Source of the DNA: an uncultured beta proteobacterium
GTDB taxonomy: Bacteria > Pseudomonadota > Gammaproteobacteria > Burkholderiales > SG8-39
Length of the DNA: 64,000 nt
NCBI GenBank assembly: GCA_963827595.1
Contig: CAWHBT010000016.1
Coordinates: forward strand, 172,803-236,802
Reading direction: 5' to 3'
How positions within the stretch are numbered: position 1 is the stretch's first letter; every line of letters begins with the position of its first letter. Under the pieces are notes generated by a model, which saw only the letters and a list, made by a program, of their open reading frames with translations, was not told the origin of the DNA and searched no databases. This document shows, one piece after another, positions 8,112 through 62,194 of this stretch. The translations under genes were made by a program, and so were the position numbers.

Positions 8112-9035
8112 TCAGAAGCCGCCCAGCACCCGCAGGTGCTGGACGACGCTGCGCCCGAGCGCGGACAGCGCGTAGCCCCCTTCGAGGACCGACACGATCC
8201 GTCCGCCCGCGTGGCGATCGGCGATGCGCTTTACCTGCTGCGTGACCCAGGCGTAGTCCTGGTCGACGAGCCGGAGCATCGCCATGTCGTCCTCGACGTG
8301 CGCGTCGAACCCGGCGGAGAAGAGAACGAGCTGGGGCTCGAAGTCGTCGAGCGCCGGCACCCAGCGGCTCTCGACCGCGTCGCGGAAGGCCTGGCTGCCG
8401 GCGCCCGCGGGCAGCGGCACGTTGACCATGTTCGGCGCCGGGTTATCGGTACCGCTGTAGGGATAGAACGGGTGCTGGAAGGTGCTGACCATCAGCGCCC
8501 GCTCGTCGTCGGAGAAAATGTCCTCGGTCCCGTTGCCGTGGTGGACGTCGAAATCGACGATCGCCACGCGCTCGAGCCCGTGGTGCTCCAGCGCGTGCCG
8601 CGCCGCCACCGCCACGTTGTTGAAGATGCAGAACCCCATCGCGCGGGTCCGCGTGGCGTGGTGGCCCGGCGGGCGAACGTTGCAGAACGCGCTCTCCGCC
8701 TCGCCGCCCAGCACCAGGTCGGTCGCGAGGACCGCGGCCCCGGCGGCGCGGAGCGCCGCGTTCCAGGTGCCGGGGCTCATCGCCGTGTCCGGGTCGAGGT
8801 GCACGATGCCCCGCTGCGGTGCCGCCGCGCGGATCGCATCGATGTACTCGCGCGGATGGACCCGCGCGAGCTGCTCGGCCGTGGCGAGCGGCGCCGCGTG
8901 GTGCTGCAGGTACCCGGCGATGCCGGACGCGATCAGCTGGTCGTCGATCGACGACAGCCGCGCCGGGCATTCCGGATGGTAGGCGCCCATGTCGTGCTGC
9001 ATGCAATCGGCATGGCCGATGAACGCGGTTGCCAT
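8112..9035 (-). CDS. histone deacetylase-family amidohydrolase (acetoin utilisation / acetylpolyamine-type)
   Basis: 307 aa with RPPGHHA, DFDVHHGNGT and SAGFDAH motifs of the HDAC/AcuC family. Confidence 0.85.
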   Translation of the reverse strand: MATAFIGHADCMQHDMGAYHPECPARLSSIDDQLIASGIAGYLQHHAAPLATAEQLARVHPREYIDAIRAAAPQRGIVHLDPDTAMSPGTWNAALRAAGAAVLATDLVLGGEAESAFCNVRPPGHHATRTRAMGFCIFNNVAVAARHALEHHGLERVAIVDFDVHHGNGTEDIFSDDERALMVSTFQHPFYPYSGTDNPAPNMVNVPLPAGAGSQAFRDAVESRWVPALDDFEPQLVLFSAGFDAHVEDDMAMLRLVDQDYAWVTQQVKRIADRHAGGRIVSVLEGGYALSALGRSVVQHLRVLGGF

Positions 9036-9101
9036 CGAATATTCCTCACTCCCCGCCGGAACCGATAGAAATCATAGCGCACGCGGGGCTACACTATTGC
9101 T

Positions 9102-10043
9102 TTGCCGCAGCTCCGCAGCTCGCCAATGTCGTCGTCCCTCCAGCGCGTGACCCAGCAGGCCGGCCGGGTGATCCTCGGCAAGGAGCGCCAGATCCGCATG
9201 GCGCTCGCGTGCCTGCTCGCCCGCGGCCACCTCCTGATCGAGGACCTGCCCGGCGTCGGCAAGACCACGCTCGCGCACGTGCTCGCGCGGTCGCTCGGGC
9301 TCGGCTTTCACCGCATCCAGTTCACGAGCGACCTGCTGCCGGCCGACATCCTCGGCGTGTCGATCTACGAGCGCGACTCGGCAACCTTCAAGTTCCACCC
9401 CGGTCCGATCTTCGCCCAGCTGATCCTGGCCGACGAGGTGAACCGCGCGACGCCGAAGACCCAGAGCGCGCTGCTCGAGGCGATGGAAGAGCACCAGGTC
9501 ACCGCCGAAGGCGAGACGCGGCGGCTGCCCGAGCCGTTCTTCGTCGTCGCCACCCAGAATCCATCGCATCAGGTCGGGACGTTCCCGCTGCCGGAGTCGC
9601 AGCTCGACCGCTTCCAGATGCGGATCGAGCTCGGCTATCCCGACCGCGACGCCGAGCGCGCGCTGCTCCAGGGCGTCGAGCGGCGCGACCTGATCGCCAC
9701 GCTCGAGCCGTGCCTCAGCCCGGGCGAGCTGGTCGAGCTGCAAAGCCTCGTGAAGCGGGTGCACATCGCGCCGGCGCTCTTCGACTACATCCAGGCGATC
9801 GTCGAGCACACGCGGCGCTCGCCCGAGTTCGTGACCGGCCTGTCGCCGCGCGCCGCGCTGGCGCTCGCCGCGTGCGCGCGCGCCTGGGCGCTGATCGATG
9901 GCCGCGACCACGTGCTGCCCGAGGACGTCCAGGCGGTGCTGCCCGGCGTCGCCACCCACCGGCTGCATCCCGTGGTGAACGGCGTGCGCCGCACGAGCTC
10001 CGACATCGCCGTCGGGCTCGTCGAGGCGGTGCCCATCCCCTGA
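9102..10043 (+). CDS. MoxR-family AAA+ ATPase
   Basis: Walker A LIEDLPGVGKTTLA, Walker B LILADEVNRATPKTQSALLEAMEE. First gene of a MoxR-DUF58-transglutaminase operon. Confidence 0.9.
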   Translation: MPQLRSSPMSSSLQRVTQQAGRVILGKERQIRMALACLLARGHLLIEDLPGVGKTTLAHVLARSLGLGFHRIQFTSDLLPADILGVSIYERDSATFKFHPGPIFAQLILADEVNRATPKTQSALLEAMEEHQVTAEGETRRLPEPFFVVATQNPSHQVGTFPLPESQLDRFQMRIELGYPDRDAERALLQGVERRDLIATLEPCLSPGELVELQSLVKRVHIAPALFDYIQAIVEHTRRSPEFVTGLSPRAALALAACARAWALIDGRDHVLPEDVQAVLPGVATHRLHPVVNGVRRTSSDIAVGLVEAVPIP

Positions 10044-45743: not shown

Positions 45744-47198
45744 CTAGGCGGGGGTGGTGCGCCCGACCGTCGCGGCGCCGGACTTGGCCGTCGCCGGCGG
45801 CGGGCCGACCTCTCCTTCCGCCGCCAACTCCGGCGGCGAAGGGGTGACGCCCTTCTCCGCGGCCGCCTCCGCGCTGTAGGCCGTGAGCTTGTTGTAGAGC
45901 GTCTTCAGGCTGATGCCGAGCATCTCCGCCGCCTTGCGCTTCACGTTGCCGCACTCCGCAAGCGTCGCCTCGATCAGCCGCCGGTTGACCTCCTCGAGCG
46001 TCGTGCCGATCCGCACGGTGAGCAGCGGCGACCGCGTGGGCTCGACGAGTTCCTCGGGCGCGAGCTCCAGGTCGATCACCTTGTCGGCGAGGATGTGCGC
46101 GCGCTGGACGTAGTTCTTCAGCTCGCGCACGTTGCCCGGCCAGCTGTGCGCGTAGAGCGCAGCGATGGCCGCCGGCGCGAACACCTTGCTCGTGCCCTCC
46201 TCCTCGTTCAACCGGTCGAGGAAGTGCTGGGCGAGGATCTCGATATCGGTGCCGCGCTCGCGCAGCAGCGGCATCTGGATCGGGAACACGTTGAGCCGGT
46301 GGAAGAGGTCCTCCCGCAGCTTGCCTTCGGCGACCGCCTTCTCCGGCACGCGGTTGGTCGCGGCGATCATCCGGACGTCGGTCGCGATCGGCGTGTTCAT
46401 CCCGACGCGCATGAAGGTGCCGGTCTCGAGCACGCGCAGGAGCTTGACCTGGAGCTCGTGCGGCATCTCGGTGATCTCGTCGAGGAACAGCGTGCCGCCG
46501 TGGGCACGCTCGAAGAACCCCTTGTGCTGGCGATCGGCGCCGGTAAAGCTGCCCTTTTCGTGGCCGAAGAGCTCGCTCTCGATGAGCTGCGGCGACACCG
46601 CGCCGCAGTTGAGCGGCAGGAACGGCGCGCGCTTGCGCCGGCTGAGCTCGTGGATCGTCTGCGCGGCGAGCTCCTTGCCGGTACCGCTCTCGCCGATGAG
46701 CAGCACGGTGGCGGAGGTCGGCGCGACGCGCCCGAGCTGGTCGTAGAGCTTCTGGATCGGCGGCGACTGGCCGAGGATGTGGCCGAACCGGCCCAGCTTG
46801 CGCAACTCCTGCCGCAGCTCGCCGATCTGCGCGCGCAGCTCGTCCGGACGCGGCACGCGCCGCAGGATCGCCTTCAGCCGCTCGACGTCCGCAGGCTTGA
46901 CGAGATAGTCGGTCGCGCCGGCGCGCAGCGCCTCGATCGCGCTCTCGGTGCTCGCGTAGCCGGTCATGACGACGAACTCGGTCGAATCGCGCCGCTCGAG
47001 GTCGGTGACGAGCTCGATGCCCTGCCCGTCGGGCAGGATGAGGTCGGTCAGCAGCACGTCCGGGGCGAGACGCGTCAGCTGAATGCGCGCGGCGCGCAAC
47101 GAGTCGGCGGTCGCGACCGTGAAGCCCTCCCCTTTGACGAACTCCGCGAGCCAATCGAGCGTTTCCGGGTCGTCATCGACGAGCAGCACGTGCGGCAT
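45744..47198 (-). CDS. sigma54-dependent response regulator (NtrC-family bacterial enhancer-binding protein)
   Basis: Receiver domain (VLLVDDDPE...LLTDLILPDG...KP). AAA+ core with Walker A GESGTGKE, the sigma54-contact loop ELFGHEKGSFTGA (GAFTGA variant), and R-finger/Walker B DEI. C-terminal Fis-type HTH KRKAAEMLGISLKTLYNKL. Confidence 0.9.
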   Translation of the reverse strand: MPHVLLVDDDPETLDWLAEFVKGEGFTVATADSLRAARIQLTRLAPDVLLTDLILPDGQGIELVTDLERRDSTEFVVMTGYASTESAIEALRAGATDYLVKPADVERLKAILRRVPRPDELRAQIGELRQELRKLGRFGHILGQSPPIQKLYDQLGRVAPTSATVLLIGESGTGKELAAQTIHELSRRKRAPFLPLNCGAVSPQLIESELFGHEKGSFTGADRQHKGFFERAHGGTLFLDEITEMPHELQVKLLRVLETGTFMRVGMNTPIATDVRMIAATNRVPEKAVAEGKLREDLFHRLNVFPIQMPLLRERGTDIEILAQHFLDRLNEEEGTSKVFAPAAIAALYAHSWPGNVRELKNYVQRAHILADKVIDLELAPEELVEPTRSPLLTVRIGTTLEEVNRRLIEATLAECGNVKRKAAEMLGISLKTLYNKLTAYSAEAAAEKGVTPSPPELAAEGEVGPPPATAKSGAATVGRTTPA

Positions 47199-52035: not shown

Positions 52036-52051
52036 GGGCACGGGCCTTGCA
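52036..52051 (+). promoter_or_regulatory. putative sigma54 -24/-12 promoter in front of rpoN itself
   Basis: 5'-GGGCACGGGCCTTGCA-3', exact GGCAC-N5-TTGCA. The -12 GC is 73 nt before ATG 52123. Confidence 0.6.
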
Positions 52052-52122: not shown

Positions 52123-53565
52123 ATGGGTCAGACCATGGAGCTGCGGCTGCGGCAGCACCTCACGCTCACGCCACAGCTGCAGCAGGCGCTGCGGCTGCTG
52201 CAGCTCTCCGCGCTCGAGTTCGAGCAGGAGATGCGGGAAGCGCTCGACACCAATCCGTTTCTCGAGGACGAGGAGGACGCAGCCCGCGTCAACGGGTCGG
52301 GCTCCGAACCGGCGACGGCGCCGGCGGAAGCTGCCCCTCCCGATTCGGGCGACGTCGCGCCCGCGCCGTCGGAGGCTCCGGACACGCTGCCCGGGATCGA
52401 CGGCCTGCCGCGGAACGCGAACGCGCACGACGGCGACGACACCGACTGGACCGAGTGGTCGGAGGCGCAGCTCACGCTGCGCGACCATCTCCGCCGGCAG
52501 CTCCTGCTCTCGCCGATGGGCGAGCGGGACCGGGGACTCGCGCACCTGGTGATCGACGCGCTGGACGCCGACGGCTATCTCAAGCTGAGCTTCGACGAGC
52601 TCGCGGCGCTGGTGCCGGCGGAGCACGACGTCGAGCCCGACGATCTCGCCGCCGCGCTGCGGCTGGTGCAGACGCTCGAGCCGACGGGCGTCGGCGCGCG
52701 GTCGCTCCAGGAATGCCTGCTGCTCCAGCTGCAGGCGCTGCCGGAGGGGACGACCGGCCGGCCCATCGCCCTCGCGCTCGTCGGCGAGCACATCGCGCTG
52801 CTCGCGGCGCGCGAGTTCGTGCGCCTGCAACAGCTGCTCGGTTGCAGCGACTCCGATCTGCACGTGGCGCGCAACCTGATCCGCTCGTTGAACCCGAAGC
52901 CGGGAGACCGGTACGGCCCGGACGACACGCGCTACGTCGTGCCGGACGTCATCGTGAGCAAAGTCCGCAACCGCTGGACCGCGACCATCAATCCGGCGGT
53001 CCAGCCGCGGATCCGCATCAACCGCGCCTACGCCGACCTGGTCGGTGCCCGCGCCACCGGCGGCCAGCAAATGTCGCGGCAGCTCCAGGAGGCGCGGTGG
53101 CTGATCCGCAACATGCAGCAGCGGTTCGTCACCATCCAGCGGGTCGCCGATGCGATCGTCGCGAAGCAGCGCAACTTCTTCGAGTACGGCGAAGTGGCGA
53201 TGAAGCCGCTCGGCCTGAAGCACATCGCCGCCCAGCTCGGGCTGCACGAGTCCACGGTCTGCCGGGTCACGAACGGCAAGTACATGGCGACCGCGCGCGG
53301 GCTGTTCGAGTTCAAGCGGTTCTTCTCGCGGCAGCTTGCGACCGACAACGGCGGCGCCTGCTCGGCAACGGCCATCCGTGCGCTGCTCAAGGAGCTGATC
53401 GCCAGCGAGCGGCCGGCGAATCCGCTGTCGGACGCCCAGCTCGCACGCCTGCTCGCCGGCCAGGGACTGCACGTGGCGCGGCGGACGGTGACCAAGTACC
53501 GGACGCTCATGCGGGTGCCGAGCGTCGAGCTGCGGCGCGCGTCGGCGCGCACCGCGGCGGCGTAG
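52123..53565 (+). CDS. rpoN: RNA polymerase sigma-54 factor
   Basis: SD AGGAGG. Region I MELRLRQHLTLTPQLQQALRLLQLSALEF, an acidic linker, a core-binding domain, the HTH HESTVCRVTNGKYM and the RpoN box ARRTVTKYR. Confidence 0.92.
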   Translation: MGQTMELRLRQHLTLTPQLQQALRLLQLSALEFEQEMREALDTNPFLEDEEDAARVNGSGSEPATAPAEAAPPDSGDVAPAPSEAPDTLPGIDGLPRNANAHDGDDTDWTEWSEAQLTLRDHLRRQLLLSPMGERDRGLAHLVIDALDADGYLKLSFDELAALVPAEHDVEPDDLAAALRLVQTLEPTGVGARSLQECLLLQLQALPEGTTGRPIALALVGEHIALLAAREFVRLQQLLGCSDSDLHVARNLIRSLNPKPGDRYGPDDTRYVVPDVIVSKVRNRWTATINPAVQPRIRINRAYADLVGARATGGQQMSRQLQEARWLIRNMQQRFVTIQRVADAIVAKQRNFFEYGEVAMKPLGLKHIAAQLGLHESTVCRVTNGKYMATARGLFEFKRFFSRQLATDNGGACSATAIRALLKELIASERPANPLSDAQLARLLAGQGLHVARRTVTKYRTLMRVPSVELRRASARTAAA

Positions 53566-53587: not shown

Positions 53588-54154
53588 ATGGCCAAGCTCG
53601 TGGTGGGACGGTTCGACAACATCGACGACGTGAAGCGCGTCCTCGACGCGCTGCCGCGGGCGGGATTCACGCGCGCGGAGTTCGGCACCTTCTACGCCGC
53701 GCCGCCCGGCCAGCACCAGCTCTATCCGATCGGCGGCGACGCGTACAGCGATGAGGGTGCGCGGGACGCCGGCAAGGGCGCGGCGACCGGCGCCGCGGTG
53801 GGGGGCGCCGCCGGCCTAGCGCTCGGGGCGTTCGCCGCTGCGGCACTGCCCTTCGCGGGGATCGCGGCAGCGCTGGCCGCGGCCGGAATCGGCGCGTACA
53901 CCGGCTCGCTCATGGGCGCGTTGTCCCGGACGCACGCACCGGATGCGCATGCGGCGACGACCGAGCACCCGGTGGAGCAGCCAGGCGGCCCGCGCGTCGC
54001 GGTCAACGTCGACCGGCCCGGGACCGAGCCGGTGGCCATCGACCTGCTCGAGCGGTACGGAGCGAAAGACTTCAGCCGCGCCGAAGGCGAGTGGCACGCG
54101 CGCGCCTGGCTGGACTACGACCCGCGCGTCGACGAGGCCGACGAAACGATCTGA
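53588..54154 (+). CDS. hypothetical membrane protein (YflT/GSP17M-like N-terminal domain plus glycine-zipper helices)
   Basis: MAKLVVGRFDNIDDVKRVLDALPRAGF resembles the general-stress-protein-17M fold opening. The central GAATGAAVGGAAGLALGAFAAAALPFAGIAAALAAAGIGAYTG is TM/glycine-zipper. It starts 22 nt after the rpoN stop. Confidence 0.45.
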   Translation: MAKLVVGRFDNIDDVKRVLDALPRAGFTRAEFGTFYAAPPGQHQLYPIGGDAYSDEGARDAGKGAATGAAVGGAAGLALGAFAAAALPFAGIAAALAAAGIGAYTGSLMGALSRTHAPDAHAATTEHPVEQPGGPRVAVNVDRPGTEPVAIDLLERYGAKDFSRAEGEWHARAWLDYDPRVDEADETI

Positions 54155-54164
54155 GCACCCCTGC

Positions 54165-55208
54165 ATGCCCGCCCCCCTCACGCGTCGACCGCGCCACGCT
54201 CCGCGCTTCTCCAGCACGTACCTCCTCGCCTTGGCGTTCGCGGGCGCTGGCGTAGCGGGGTCGGTGGCGCAAGTACCGGCCCCGCCGCCACGCCCCACTG
54301 ACGCCGAAATCCTGGCTTCGATCGTCGCAGTCGGCGTGCGTGCGGTCGCGCATGCGCGCAACTCGCATGGGCAGGGGCGCGAACGCGAGGGGACCGGCAT
54401 CGTGATCGAGCCGGGCGGTCACGTCCTCACCAGTGCGCTCCTCGTGCAGGAGGCCGATTCGATCGTCGTCACCACGGCGGACGCCCGGAGCGTGCGTGCC
54501 GCCGTTGCAGCCACGGACGAGACGACGGGTGTCGCGATCCTCCGTCCGGCGGAAGGTCTCGGCGTCCGGCCGATGCCGCTCGGCGCGTCGGCCGAGCTCA
54601 AGATCCCCGCGGCGGTCACGGTCGCTGCCGCGGGCCGGGCCCGCCGGATCGCGATCGCCACCGTCGTCGCGCAACGCGAGTTCGCCGGCCACTGGGAGTT
54701 CCTGGTGGACGACGCGCTGTTCACGACCCCGGGCGTGCCGCAGCCGGACGGCGCAGCGCTCGTCGACGGGAGCGGCAAGCTGGTCGGCGTGGGCTGCCTG
54801 CTCCTCGCCGACGTCCGTGGGATCGCCGCGACAGCGACCACGGCCAATCTATTCATCCCGGTGGAGCATTTTCAGTCTGCGCTCGCCAAGCTCACCCCCG
54901 CCGGCGGCAATCGGCTGGCGCGCCGTCCCTGGCTCGGCCTGGTCATGGACAAGTCCGGCGATGAGCTCACCATCACCAAGGTGCCGCCCGGCAGTCCCGC
55001 GGAACGTGCCGGACTACGCATCGGTGACGTGGTGACCGCAGTGAACGGGAACCTCGTCGTTACGCGTGCCGTGCTGTACCGCCGCCTTTGGCGGGAACAC
55101 CCGGGAGCGGACATCGTGCTCACGATCCGTCGCGACGGCGCACCGCACGAGGTGCGGCTGCGCGCGATGGACCAGCAGGACTACCTGATCCACCGCGCGC
55201 AGCTGTAA
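54165..55208 (+). CDS. trypsin-like (S1C/DegP-type) domain plus PDZ protein with a degenerate catalytic triad
   Basis: 347 aa with a signal/TM segment. Fold markers are GTGIVIEPGGHVLTSALLV, DETTGVAILR and FTTPGVPQPDGAALVDGSGKLVGVG, then the PDZ LGLVMD...ITKVPPGSPAERAGLRIGDVVTAVNG. The positions aligning to His (TNAHV) and Ser (GNSGGP) read TSALL and QPDGAA. Confidence 0.7.
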   Translation: MPAPLTRRPRHAPRFSSTYLLALAFAGAGVAGSVAQVPAPPPRPTDAEILASIVAVGVRAVAHARNSHGQGREREGTGIVIEPGGHVLTSALLVQEADSIVVTTADARSVRAAVAATDETTGVAILRPAEGLGVRPMPLGASAELKIPAAVTVAAAGRARRIAIATVVAQREFAGHWEFLVDDALFTTPGVPQPDGAALVDGSGKLVGVGCLLLADVRGIAATATTANLFIPVEHFQSALAKLTPAGGNRLARRPWLGLVMDKSGDELTITKVPPGSPAERAGLRIGDVVTAVNGNLVVTRAVLYRRLWREHPGADIVLTIRRDGAPHEVRLRAMDQQDYLIHRAQL

Positions 55209-56652: not shown

Positions 56653-57286
56653 TCAGCGGCGCGCCAGGTTCTCGGACGCGAACTCCCAGTTCAGCAGCTT
56701 CTCGACCACCGCCTTGACGTGCTTGTCCCGCTTGTTCTGGTAGTCGAGGTAGTAGGCGTGCTCCCAGACGTCGACCGTCAGCAGCGGCGTCTTGCCCTGC
56801 ACGACCGGCGTGTGCGCGTCGGGGGTCGTGACGATCTCGAGCGCGCCGCCGTTCGCGACCAGCCACGCCCAGCCGCTGCCGAAGTGCCCGGTGGCCGCGC
56901 GCCGCAAACGCCTTCATGAACGCGTCGTAGCCGCCGAGATCACGGTCGAGTAGGCGGCGCAGCGCCTCGCTCGGTTTCCCGGGCTTCGGCGTCAGGCTCT
57001 CCCAGTAGAACGCGTGGTTCAGCGCCTGACCAGCGTTGTTGAAGACTTCGGCGCGAGCCGGGTCGTCCCGGGTGCGCTTGACGATCTCCAGCAACGGCAG
57101 GCGCTCGAGGTCGGTGCCCGCGACCAGCTCGTTGAGCTTCTCGACGTAGGCGCGATGGTGCTTGCCGTGATGGAGCTCGATCGTGCGCTTCGAGATCACC
57201 GGTTCGAGCGCGTGCCTCGCCCATGGCAGGGCGGGGAGGGTGAAGGGGCCGGGCGCGGTGGCTGCGCGGGGGAGTGGAGCGTTCAT
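56653..57286 (-). pseudogene. sodB: Fe/Mn superoxide dismutase interrupted by a 1-nt insertion
   Basis: The N-terminal frame reads FTLPALPWARHALEPVISKRTIELHHGKHHRAYV...NNAGQALNHAFYW...YDAFMKAFAA. The C-terminal frame reads AATGHFGSGWAWLV...LLTVDVWEHAYYLDYQN. The shift falls in GCGGCG-C-GCGGCC near 56900, and the span is 3n+1 nt. Confidence 0.85.
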
Positions 57287-61239: not shown

Positions 61240-61288
61240 GTTGGACGGACATCGCGGCGAGATCGCCGCCGGCCTTAAGGAGCGCACG

Positions 61289-62194
61289 ATGTCGCCCGAT
61301 GTCATGCTGCTGATCGTTCTGCTGCTGGTCCTCGCCGCCGCCCTGGACGTGGCGCGACGGCGCGAGCCGGTGCGCCTTGGGCTGCCCGCTGGCCCGCGGC
61401 TTGCCGCGATCGGCGCGGTGACGCTCGCGGTCGGCTGCGCGAGCGTCGAGACTACCGAGTCGGGCGTCGTCGGCGTGGACCGGACCCAGTCGATGTCGCC
61501 GCTGGTCAGCGAGGCCGAGTTCAACAAGGGCGCCGCGCAAGCCTATGCCCAGGTGCTGGCCGACGCCCGCGCCAAAGGCGTGCTCAACCGGGACCCGGCG
61601 CAGGTCGCGCGCGTCCGGACGATCGCACAGCGCATCATCCCCCAGACGAAGGTGTTCCGGCCCGACGCGCAGCAGTGGGCGTGGGAAGTGAATGTCCTCC
61701 AGGCGAAGGAAGTGAACGCCTGGTGCATGCCGGGCGGAAAGATCGCCGTCTACTCTGGGATCATCGAGCAGCTCCAGCTCACCGACGCCGAGCTGGCGGC
61801 AATCATGGGGCACGAGATCGCGCACGCGCTGCGCGAGCACGGCCGCGAGCGCGCCTCGCGCGCCGTGACCCAGGGCGTCGCGCTCAGCGTGATCGGCGCC
61901 GTGACCGGCGTCGGCCAGGGGACCGTCGACCTCGCGCAGGTCGCGCTCGAGGTCACGCTCAACCTCCCCAATTCGCGCGAGCACGAGGTCGAGGCCGACC
62001 GGATCGGCGTCGAGCTCGCCGCACGCGCCGGCTACGACCCGCGGGCGGCGGTGACGCTCTGGCAGAAGATGGACAAGCTCGCCGCCGGCGGTCCGCCGGC
62101 CTTTCTGTCGACGCACCCCTCGAGCGAGTCCCGCCAGCGGGATCTCGCGATCTACGCCGAGAAGGTGATGCCCCTCTACCAATCCAAGCGCTGA
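61289..62194 (+). CDS. M48-family zinc metalloprotease lipoprotein (YcaL/LoiP-like)
   Basis: SD AAGGAG. Lipobox LAVGC. HEIAH zinc motif (AAIMGHEIAHALREH), a downstream EHEVEADRIG, and STHPS near the C-terminus. Confidence 0.85.
   Translation: MSPDVMLLIVLLLVLAAALDVARRREPVRLGLPAGPRLAAIGAVTLAVGCASVETTESGVVGVDRTQSMSPLVSEAEFNKGAAQAYAQVLADARAKGVLNRDPAQVARVRTIAQRIIPQTKVFRPDAQQWAWEVNVLQAKEVNAWCMPGGKIAVYSGIIEQLQLTDAELAAIMGHEIAHALREHGRERASRAVTQGVALSVIGAVTGVGQGTVDLAQVALEVTLNLPNSREHEVEADRIGVELAARAGYDPRAAVTLWQKMDKLAAGGPPAFLSTHPSSESRQRDLAIYAEKVMPLYQSKR

Follow-up and report, generated by a model that had tools for sequence, protein, structure and literature searches.

An HtrA-type PDZ protein without catalytic residues, encoded beside a second rpoN copy in an apparent sigma-54 stress island of a betaproteobacterium

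HtrA proteins that have lost their peptidase activity are already known as a category, represented in bacteria by MamO and in plants by DEG7 and further inactive Deg paralogues. MamO is non-catalytic and activates MamE-dependent proteolysis without any catalysis of its own; it keeps the His and Asp of the triad, has Thr in place of the Ser, has a TauE transporter domain as well as a di-His metal-binding site and is specific to the magnetosome island, and its structure showed that its oxyanion hole cannot form because chymotrypsin position 193 is occupied by a residue other than glycine (PMC4794232). In plant DEG7, a degenerate protease domain is reported to serve oligomerisation (PMC3194040). 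The active protein with the most similar architecture is DegS, whose allosteric activation cluster consists of R178, P161, Y162, L164, T167, Q191, F220 and I232 (reviewed in PMC11642142).

Here we describe a relative of these proteins, which we call pseudo-HtrA, encoded at positions 54165..55208 (347 aa plus stop) of a 64,000-nucleotide stretch of contig CAWHBT010000016.1 from an uncultured betaproteobacterium, hereafter the window; coordinates refer to its plus strand unless marked (-). Pseudo-HtrA has lost the catalytic His, Asp and Ser together with the oxyanion-hole Gly and therefore cannot be expected to cleave peptide bonds; it is almost certainly not a protease. The literature on HtrA pseudoproteases of this type yielded only MamO and the plant Deg cases, and nothing on the family to which pseudo-HtrA belongs. 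In our view, pseudo-HtrA is probably a stress-induced, non-catalytic factor of the periplasm that binds peptides or proteins.

Catalytic positions and fold of pseudo-HtrA

Three alignment methods gave the same mapping of the triad: a phmmer alignment to HhoA from the PDB, a MAFFT alignment of the query and family members with DegP, DegQ and DegS of E. coli K-12, the columns of which were read by script, and an hhalign comparison of a 121-sequence family profile with DegS, DegP and DegQ (probability 99.65%). L92 (codon 54438..54440) occupies the position of the catalytic His (DegS H96, DegP H105), G122 (54528..54530) that of the catalytic Asp (DegS D126, DegP D135) and D195, in an L1-loop remnant Q193-P194-D195 (54741..54749), that of the catalytic Ser (DegS S201, DegP S210), and Q193 of the same remnant replaces the oxyanion-hole Gly (DegS G199, chymotrypsin position 193, the Gly of GNSGG). 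Both the His-Asp-Ser triad and the oxyanion-hole glycine of active S1C peptidases are absent. An initial annotation of the window had proposed a non-catalytic pseudo-protease from the strings HVLTSALLV (residues 86-94) and QPDGAALV (residues 193-200), in which the His and the Ser appeared to be missing. Both losses are borne out, since no alignment to the S1C references places a His or a Ser at a catalytic position, and the proposal as a whole agrees with the family-wide substitutions, the retained fold and the intact-looking PDZ domain described below. The same annotation took the block DETTGVAILR to keep the catalytic Asp, and here it has to be corrected: although the block is conserved overall, its Asp is D118, the counterpart of the conserved, non-catalytic D122 of DegS, and the catalytic position itself is a Gly.

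The fold, by comparison, has been retained. A degenerate chymotrypsin-fold domain matches Pfam Trypsin_2 (PF13365) over residues 76-209 (54390..54791; E 4.5e-14, 53.8 bits against a cutoff of 27.6) and is structured from about residue 46 to residue 241 in a confident AlphaFold2 (AF2) model (pLDDT 87.8, pTM 0.83). It is followed by a single PDZ domain, residues 256-331 (54930..55157), which is present in the AF2 model and is matched by PDZ_2/PDZ_6 with an E-value of 4e-13, the Pfam models PDZ_2, PDZ_6 and PDZ all scoring above their cutoffs. The 50 best Foldseek matches of the model in the PDB are all HtrA proteins (DegP, DegQ, Deg1, DegS, AlgW and MucD), with E-values from 5e-21 to 1e-17. Pfam, hhalign and AF2/Foldseek thus agree with the S1C fold and clear PDZ domain of the initial annotation, and place the protein within the HtrA/S1C fold.

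Several elements of an HtrA protein outside the catalytic centre are also kept. The carboxylate-binding loop of the PDZ domain is present as R254-P-W-L-G-L259 (54924..54941), aligned to R256-G-Y-I-G-I of DegS, and its W256 and G258 are invariant in the family. The equivalent of the L3 loop, R171-E-F-A-G-H-W-E178 (54675..54698), is strongly conserved in the family alignment as REFAGxWE, with E178 invariant and with F173 in place of DegS R178; it is predicted to face the PDZ helix. In the PDZ helix, Y305, R306 and W309 are kept, R306 being invariant. The activation cluster of DegS has no such continuity: in the order given above, its counterparts are F173, A156, G157, A159, I162, F186, L214 and A227. 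In DegS, R178 pairs with D320 of the PDZ domain; these two positions are F173 and the invariant R306 in the query, the invariant E178 sits in L3, and the L3-PDZ contact may therefore have been rewired in pseudo-HtrA. In DegS, D122 and R256 may form an inter-domain salt bridge.

The N-terminus (residues 1-36, 54165..54272), as judged from the sequence and a hydropathy scan, looks like a Sec-type signal peptide or anchor, with an Arg-rich n-region, a hydrophobic segment, YLLALAFAGAGVAGSVA, and a putative SVA/QV cleavage site. Equivalent hydrophobic N-termini are present in homologues, and residues 1-29 have a pLDDT below 50 in the AF2 model. Such a signal peptide or anchor would place the body of the protein in the periplasm. 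The ATG lies 10 nt past the stop codon of the upstream gene, and the start at 54165 is common to homologues; a longer open reading frame (ORF) starting at 53943 was rejected, because it would overlap the upstream glycine-zipper gene by about 210 nt and because homologues start at 54165.

Conservation of the substitutions across the family

The loss of the triad is a trait of the family and not a sign of decay. A word-indexed protein search returned 865 proteins at E <= 1e-5, and columns were counted in the best 120. The His column reads Y84/L22/F9/S2/T2/A1, with no His at all, the Asp column G118/D2 and the Ser column S74/A43/D1/V1/G1, so that these homologues conserve the replacement of His (0 of 120) and of Asp by Gly (118 of 120). 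When 1.84 billion cluster representatives (50% identity) were searched exhaustively, 148 matched at E <= 1e-30; only one of about 125 full-length, diverse representatives has H-D-S, and the common states are Y-G-S, Y-G-G and Y-G-A. The nucleophile column varies across the family (S, A, G, D, V, P, N and others), and position 193 in chymotrypsin numbering is non-glycine family-wide (D, E, A or Q).

The family is found in alpha- and betaproteobacteria and falls into two clades: a large alphaproteobacterial "Y-G-S" clade, with Skermanella aerolata and Rhodoplanes among its named matches, and a betaproteobacterial "L/F-G-A" clade that shares at least about 50% identity with the query and in which the nucleophile position is Ala or Asp. 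In the alphaproteobacterial clade, 83 of 84 proteins have Trp at the position of DegS N200 (chymotrypsin 194), beside the retained Ser. The two clades also differ at the C-terminus, which reads ...LKSTF in the alphaproteobacterial proteins and ...DYLIHRA(QL) in the clade of the query. Outer-membrane proteins bound by HtrA PDZ domains carry an aromatic C-terminal signature, to which the LKSTF tail is similar, and it is conceivable that the tail of the alphaproteobacterial members binds a PDZ domain of its own or of another molecule.

Two further explanations of the substitutions, that pseudo-HtrA is an enzyme with non-canonical residues or that its gene is a decaying pseudogene, seem to us scarcely credible. 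An enzyme might be suspected from Asp195 at the nucleophile position and from the alphaproteobacterial clade, which retains Ser with Tyr at the His position; an unconventional activity of that Y-G-S clade has formally to be allowed for. The variability of the nucleophile column and the non-glycine residue at position 193 argue against it, however, and the list of invariant columns (17 across 121 sequences) contains no conserved His, Ser, Cys or Lys lining the cleft. Decay might be suspected because a frameshifted sodB lies nearby, an indication that damaged genes exist in the assembly or the genome. Against decay, the ORFs are intact and full length in all homologues listed, the predicted fold is confident, the invariant columns persist, and codon usage is typical of the genome, with a GC content at third codon positions of 0.85, like that of neighbouring genes. 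The dN/dS ratio relative to a 96%-identical homologue is 0.44, an estimate from 26 substitutions only.

These proteins are annotated as enzymes all the same. All source names recovered for the family are "S1C family serine protease" or "serine protease Do", and a scan of the query against NCBIfam found no model at its cutoff. At least about 148 clusters at 50% identity are thus affected by a serine protease label that their catalytic machinery does not support. A conserved, free-standing periplasmic HtrA pseudoenzyme with a PDZ domain would also be a clean natural system in which to study the non-proteolytic functions of HtrA proteins, as holdase, adaptor or allosteric partner.

The apparent rpoN transcription unit and the stress island around it

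The pseudo-HtrA gene appears to be the last of three genes transcribed together. The first is a copy of rpoN (52123..53565; Pfam Sigma54_AID, Sigma54_CBD and Sigma54_DBD), encoding sigma-54, that lies outside the canonical lptB-rpoN-hpf-ptsN context. Its ORF as listed reaches back to 52087, but the true start is probably 52123, because an AGGAGG Shine-Dalgarno sequence is found 6 nt before this ATG and because the database protein P0398, which is 100% identical to the rpoN product, has 480 aa. The second gene (53588..54154) encodes a glycine-zipper (Gly-zipper) membrane protein of 188 aa that belongs to no Pfam family; it has an N-terminal domain of about 50 aa, a glycine-zipper hydrophobic hairpin (~68-104) and a conserved C-terminal domain. 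The motif scan described below placed a sigma-54 type -24/-12 promoter-like element, GGGCACGGGCCTTGCA, at 52036..52051, upstream of rpoN, and neither a sigma-70-like promoter nor an intrinsic terminator was found between 51400 and 55700. We therefore read the three genes as an apparent single transcription unit dependent on sigma-54, with the element at 52036 as its likely promoter. The initial annotation had called pseudo-HtrA the third gene after rpoN; it is indeed the third gene of the apparent operon, but only the second downstream of rpoN. A sigma-54 promoter of its own was considered for the gene in the window, at TGGCACGCGCGCGCC about 60 nt upstream and inside the Gly-zipper gene, and was rejected because the sequence has no -12 GC.

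This unit lies in a stress island that extends over ~33-64 kb of the window. Its regulators are an NtrC-type bacterial enhancer-binding protein (bEBP; 45744-47198, -), two PAS hybrid kinases and a REC protein, and its stress genes encode CsbD, DUF2383, a ferritin-like protein, an Fe/Mn superoxide dismutase (SOD), PLD, BON proteins and an M48 peptidase (61241-62194); two AI-2E transporters, an SLT protein and an Exo_endo_phos protein are also present. A scan for TGGCAC-N5-TTGC with at most one mismatch (the motif is also written GGGCACG-N4-TTGC) found 18 -24/-12 motifs against 3.06 expected, a number reached in none of 100 shuffles, and nearly all of them lie 25-130 nt upstream of the start of a gene on the same strand, including rpoN and the bEBP gene. 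The island thus looks like a regulon of sigma-54 that includes an rpoN copy of its own, and its gene set is similar to those of the RpoS or EcfG general-stress regulons. We found no description of a sigma-54 general-stress island in the literature, and the island may be a more novel feature of the region than the pseudoprotease. The SOD gene (56653-57286, -) is split into two frames near 56900-56910, so that the Sod_Fe_N part and the C-terminal part are read in different frames; each of its orthologues in three related loci (L013, L016 and L021) is one uninterrupted ORF, of 210-213 aa, and the split is either a frameshift or a sequencing error.

A contig scan with the family alignment identified at least four relevant loci. 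The order rpoN, Gly-zipper gene, pseudo-HtrA, followed by genes for ferritin, SOD, PLD and BON proteins, recurs in L003/L016, L004, L013 and L014/L015, which are contigs of Burkholderiales and of betaproteobacterial metagenome-assembled genomes; L004 and L013 have the pseudo-HtrA gene and a missing or truncated Gly-zipper gene, and on L005, whose sequence starts with the pseudo-HtrA gene, only the downstream part can be seen. Directly upstream of pseudo-HtrA, four of the five related loci (L013, L016, L004 and L005, with L003 and L016 counted as one contig) have a canonical -24/-12 element, the element in the fifth (L014) being palindromic and ambiguous. With a sigma-54 promoter of its own in these four loci, pseudo-HtrA looks like a target, or output, of sigma-54 and not like a demonstrated regulator. 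A Gly-zipper gene directly follows the rpoN copy in the window, in L003/L016 and in L014/L015, and also in L020 (Aromatoleum anaerobium; 9001-9576) and L021 (9001-9591), two islands that keep rpoN and the Gly-zipper gene in the absence of pseudo-HtrA. L021 is the closest island of all, with rpoN 80-89% and PLD 78% identical. Because these islands do without the gene, the role of pseudo-HtrA is accessory; and because the Gly-zipper protein accompanies rpoN there, an rpoN-linked function may be ascribed to it with at least as much reason as to pseudo-HtrA. In the window, the pseudo-HtrA gene is thus a marker of a stress island that depends on sigma-54 and has an rpoN of its own, and related islands exist in cultured relatives, as the example of Aromatoleum anaerobium illustrates for an island without pseudo-HtrA.

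The linkage to rpoN is limited to one betaproteobacterial sub-clade. No rpoN was found near pseudo-HtrA in five alphaproteobacterial loci. In two of them, on Bradyrhizobiaceae-like contigs (L018 and L024), the gene lies just upstream of rlpA-dacC (PBP5)-tmk-holB, and about 25 nt upstream of it there is a small ORF for a secreted, Cys-containing protein of 126 aa (L018 6596-6976, L024 5594-5974); the other three loci have unrelated contexts. This neighbourhood hints at a possible cell-wall or envelope link of the alphaproteobacterial clade. A partner shared between that clade and the window was ruled out, the small upstream ORFs there being unrelated to the window.

The position of the gene raises the alternative that pseudo-HtrA is a DegS-like periplasmic sensor feeding back on sigma-54. 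Its PDZ domain would bind a C-terminus exposed by stress, and a non-proteolytic signal would pass to a membrane histidine kinase, to the bEBP or to the Gly-zipper protein and so to the activity of the adjacent RpoN; the initial annotation had likewise suggested a regulatory role like that of DegS and RseP in the control of a sigma factor. The layout and size of the protein (347 aa against 355 aa for DegS), the conserved counterparts of DegS D122 and R256 (D118 and R254), the invariance in the L3-like loop and the PDZ helix, which would fit a coupled two-domain switch, and the place after rpoN conserved in the window and in L003/L016, L004, L013 and L014/L015 all speak for such a sensor, as does a multi-pass membrane domain, of about seven helices, in one of the two hybrid kinases (HK1). 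We nevertheless consider it unlikely. The protein is predicted to be periplasmic whereas sigma-54 is cytoplasmic, and to our knowledge neither an anti-sigma factor nor a regulated-proteolysis pathway has been described for sigma-54. The ORFs annotated between ~29 kb and the window's end include no homologue of rpoE, rseA or rseP and no anti-sigma factor. The second kinase (HK2) looks cytoplasmic, and neither kinase has a sizeable periplasmic domain or an obvious periplasmic docking domain. Moreover, L020 and L021 share rpoN, the stress genes and the Gly-zipper gene with the window and yet have no pseudo-HtrA, the majority of the family is unlinked to rpoN, the promoters in the related loci indicate an output, and the DegS activation-cluster residues are all replaced. 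A wider version, in which pseudo-HtrA would be the periplasmic input or feedback arm of an undescribed general-stress system, recognising exposed C-termini of damaged envelope proteins and signalling by binding alone, strikes us as highly doubtful; if true, Burkholderiales and Rhodocyclales would have such a system with a second sigma-54 dedicated to it, served by its own bEBP and hybrid kinases, and it would be a non-proteolytic counterpart of the pathway from DegS to sigma-E, wired to sigma-54.

The M48 peptidase gene in the same island points to another possibility, that pseudo-HtrA modulates an active protease, either by forming mixed oligomers with an active HtrA protein or another periplasmic protease, such as the M48 peptidase, or by delivering substrates to it. 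MamO with MamE and plant DEG7 provide precedents, and the retained fold and PDZ domain would suit such a role. We give it rather little credence, however: the ORFs annotated in approximately the last 35 kb of the window include no gene for an active HtrA, none was seen in the flanks of the related loci, and no pattern of co-occurrence with a specific protease was found. Proteins of the neighbouring island genes were also considered as ligands of the PDZ domain and ruled out, their C-termini being neither hydrophobic nor conserved.

We therefore return to the probable role of pseudo-HtrA as a stress-induced binding factor. According to this model, the gene would be transcribed together with the second rpoN copy, or just after it in the relatives, within a sigma-54-dependent stress island; the PDZ domain would capture exposed C-termini, the dead cleft may hold extended segments of envelope proteins, and pseudo-HtrA would act as a stress-induced holdase or adaptor of the envelope, or as the partner of an active protease. 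Several points weigh against this model. Pseudo-HtrA has one PDZ domain, and two are needed for chaperone cages of the DegP type; the gene is dispensable in the close islands L020 and L021; the signal peptide was recognised only by eye and from hydropathy; the alphaproteobacterial clade, the larger part of the family, retains Ser at the nucleophile position, with Tyr at that of the His; and few substitutions underlie the dN/dS estimate given above.

Comparison with described HtrA proteins

DegS resembles pseudo-HtrA in size and layout: in both, a hydrophobic N-terminal segment is followed by a single chymotrypsin-fold domain and a single PDZ domain. The R-x-aromatic-Φ-G-Φ loop of the PDZ domain and the Asp equivalent to D122 are kept, and DegS is among the best fold matches. 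In contrast, the His, Asp, Ser and oxyanion Gly are replaced, and R178, P161, Y162, T167 and Q191 have become F, A, G, I and F. The scores against the DegS-specific models are far below their cutoffs (65.7 against 422.95 for TIGR02038, 54.9 against 408 for NF008147), so that pseudo-HtrA is not an equivalog of DegS, and in place of a sigma-E/RseA/RseP context it has a sigma-54 island.

Overall, both structure and sequence match DegP and DegQ best (Foldseek E ~5e-21, phmmer E ~1e-12). DegP with its catalytic Ser mutated keeps chaperone activity; in pseudo-HtrA the triad was lost in the course of evolution and was not removed by mutagenesis. Pseudo-HtrA has one PDZ domain where these proteins have two, cages of 12 or 24 subunits of the DegP type are not expected, and it scores well under the cutoffs of the corresponding models (85 against 416.2 for TIGR02037, 37.4 against 720 for NF008189 and 51.9 against 756 for NF007526).

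The likeness to MamO lies in the combination of membership of the bacterial HtrA proteins, a degenerate triad and a non-glycine residue at position 193 (PMC4794232). In the L1 loop, MamO carries a bulky Trp at position 192 (PMC4794232) and the alphaproteobacterial clade a Trp close by, at 194; the query has a Pro in this loop. Unlike MamO, pseudo-HtrA has lost all three triad residues, keeps a PDZ domain and has no TauE domain; it scores 16.5 bits against a cutoff of 800 for NF040961, and its context is a sigma-54 stress island and not a magnetosome island. With plant DEG7 and the inactive Deg paralogues, it shares an HtrA protease domain without catalysis, which in the plant proteins is reported to be kept for protein-protein interaction (PMC3194040, PMC3473262). 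The plant proteins, however, are eukaryotic and the DEG7 domain is an internal duplicate within an active enzyme, whereas pseudo-HtrA is bacterial, free-standing and, by prediction, periplasmic. Pseudo-HtrA is thus most like DegS in architecture and most like MamO as a pseudoenzyme, and it belongs to the HtrA family as a non-peptidase homologue only.

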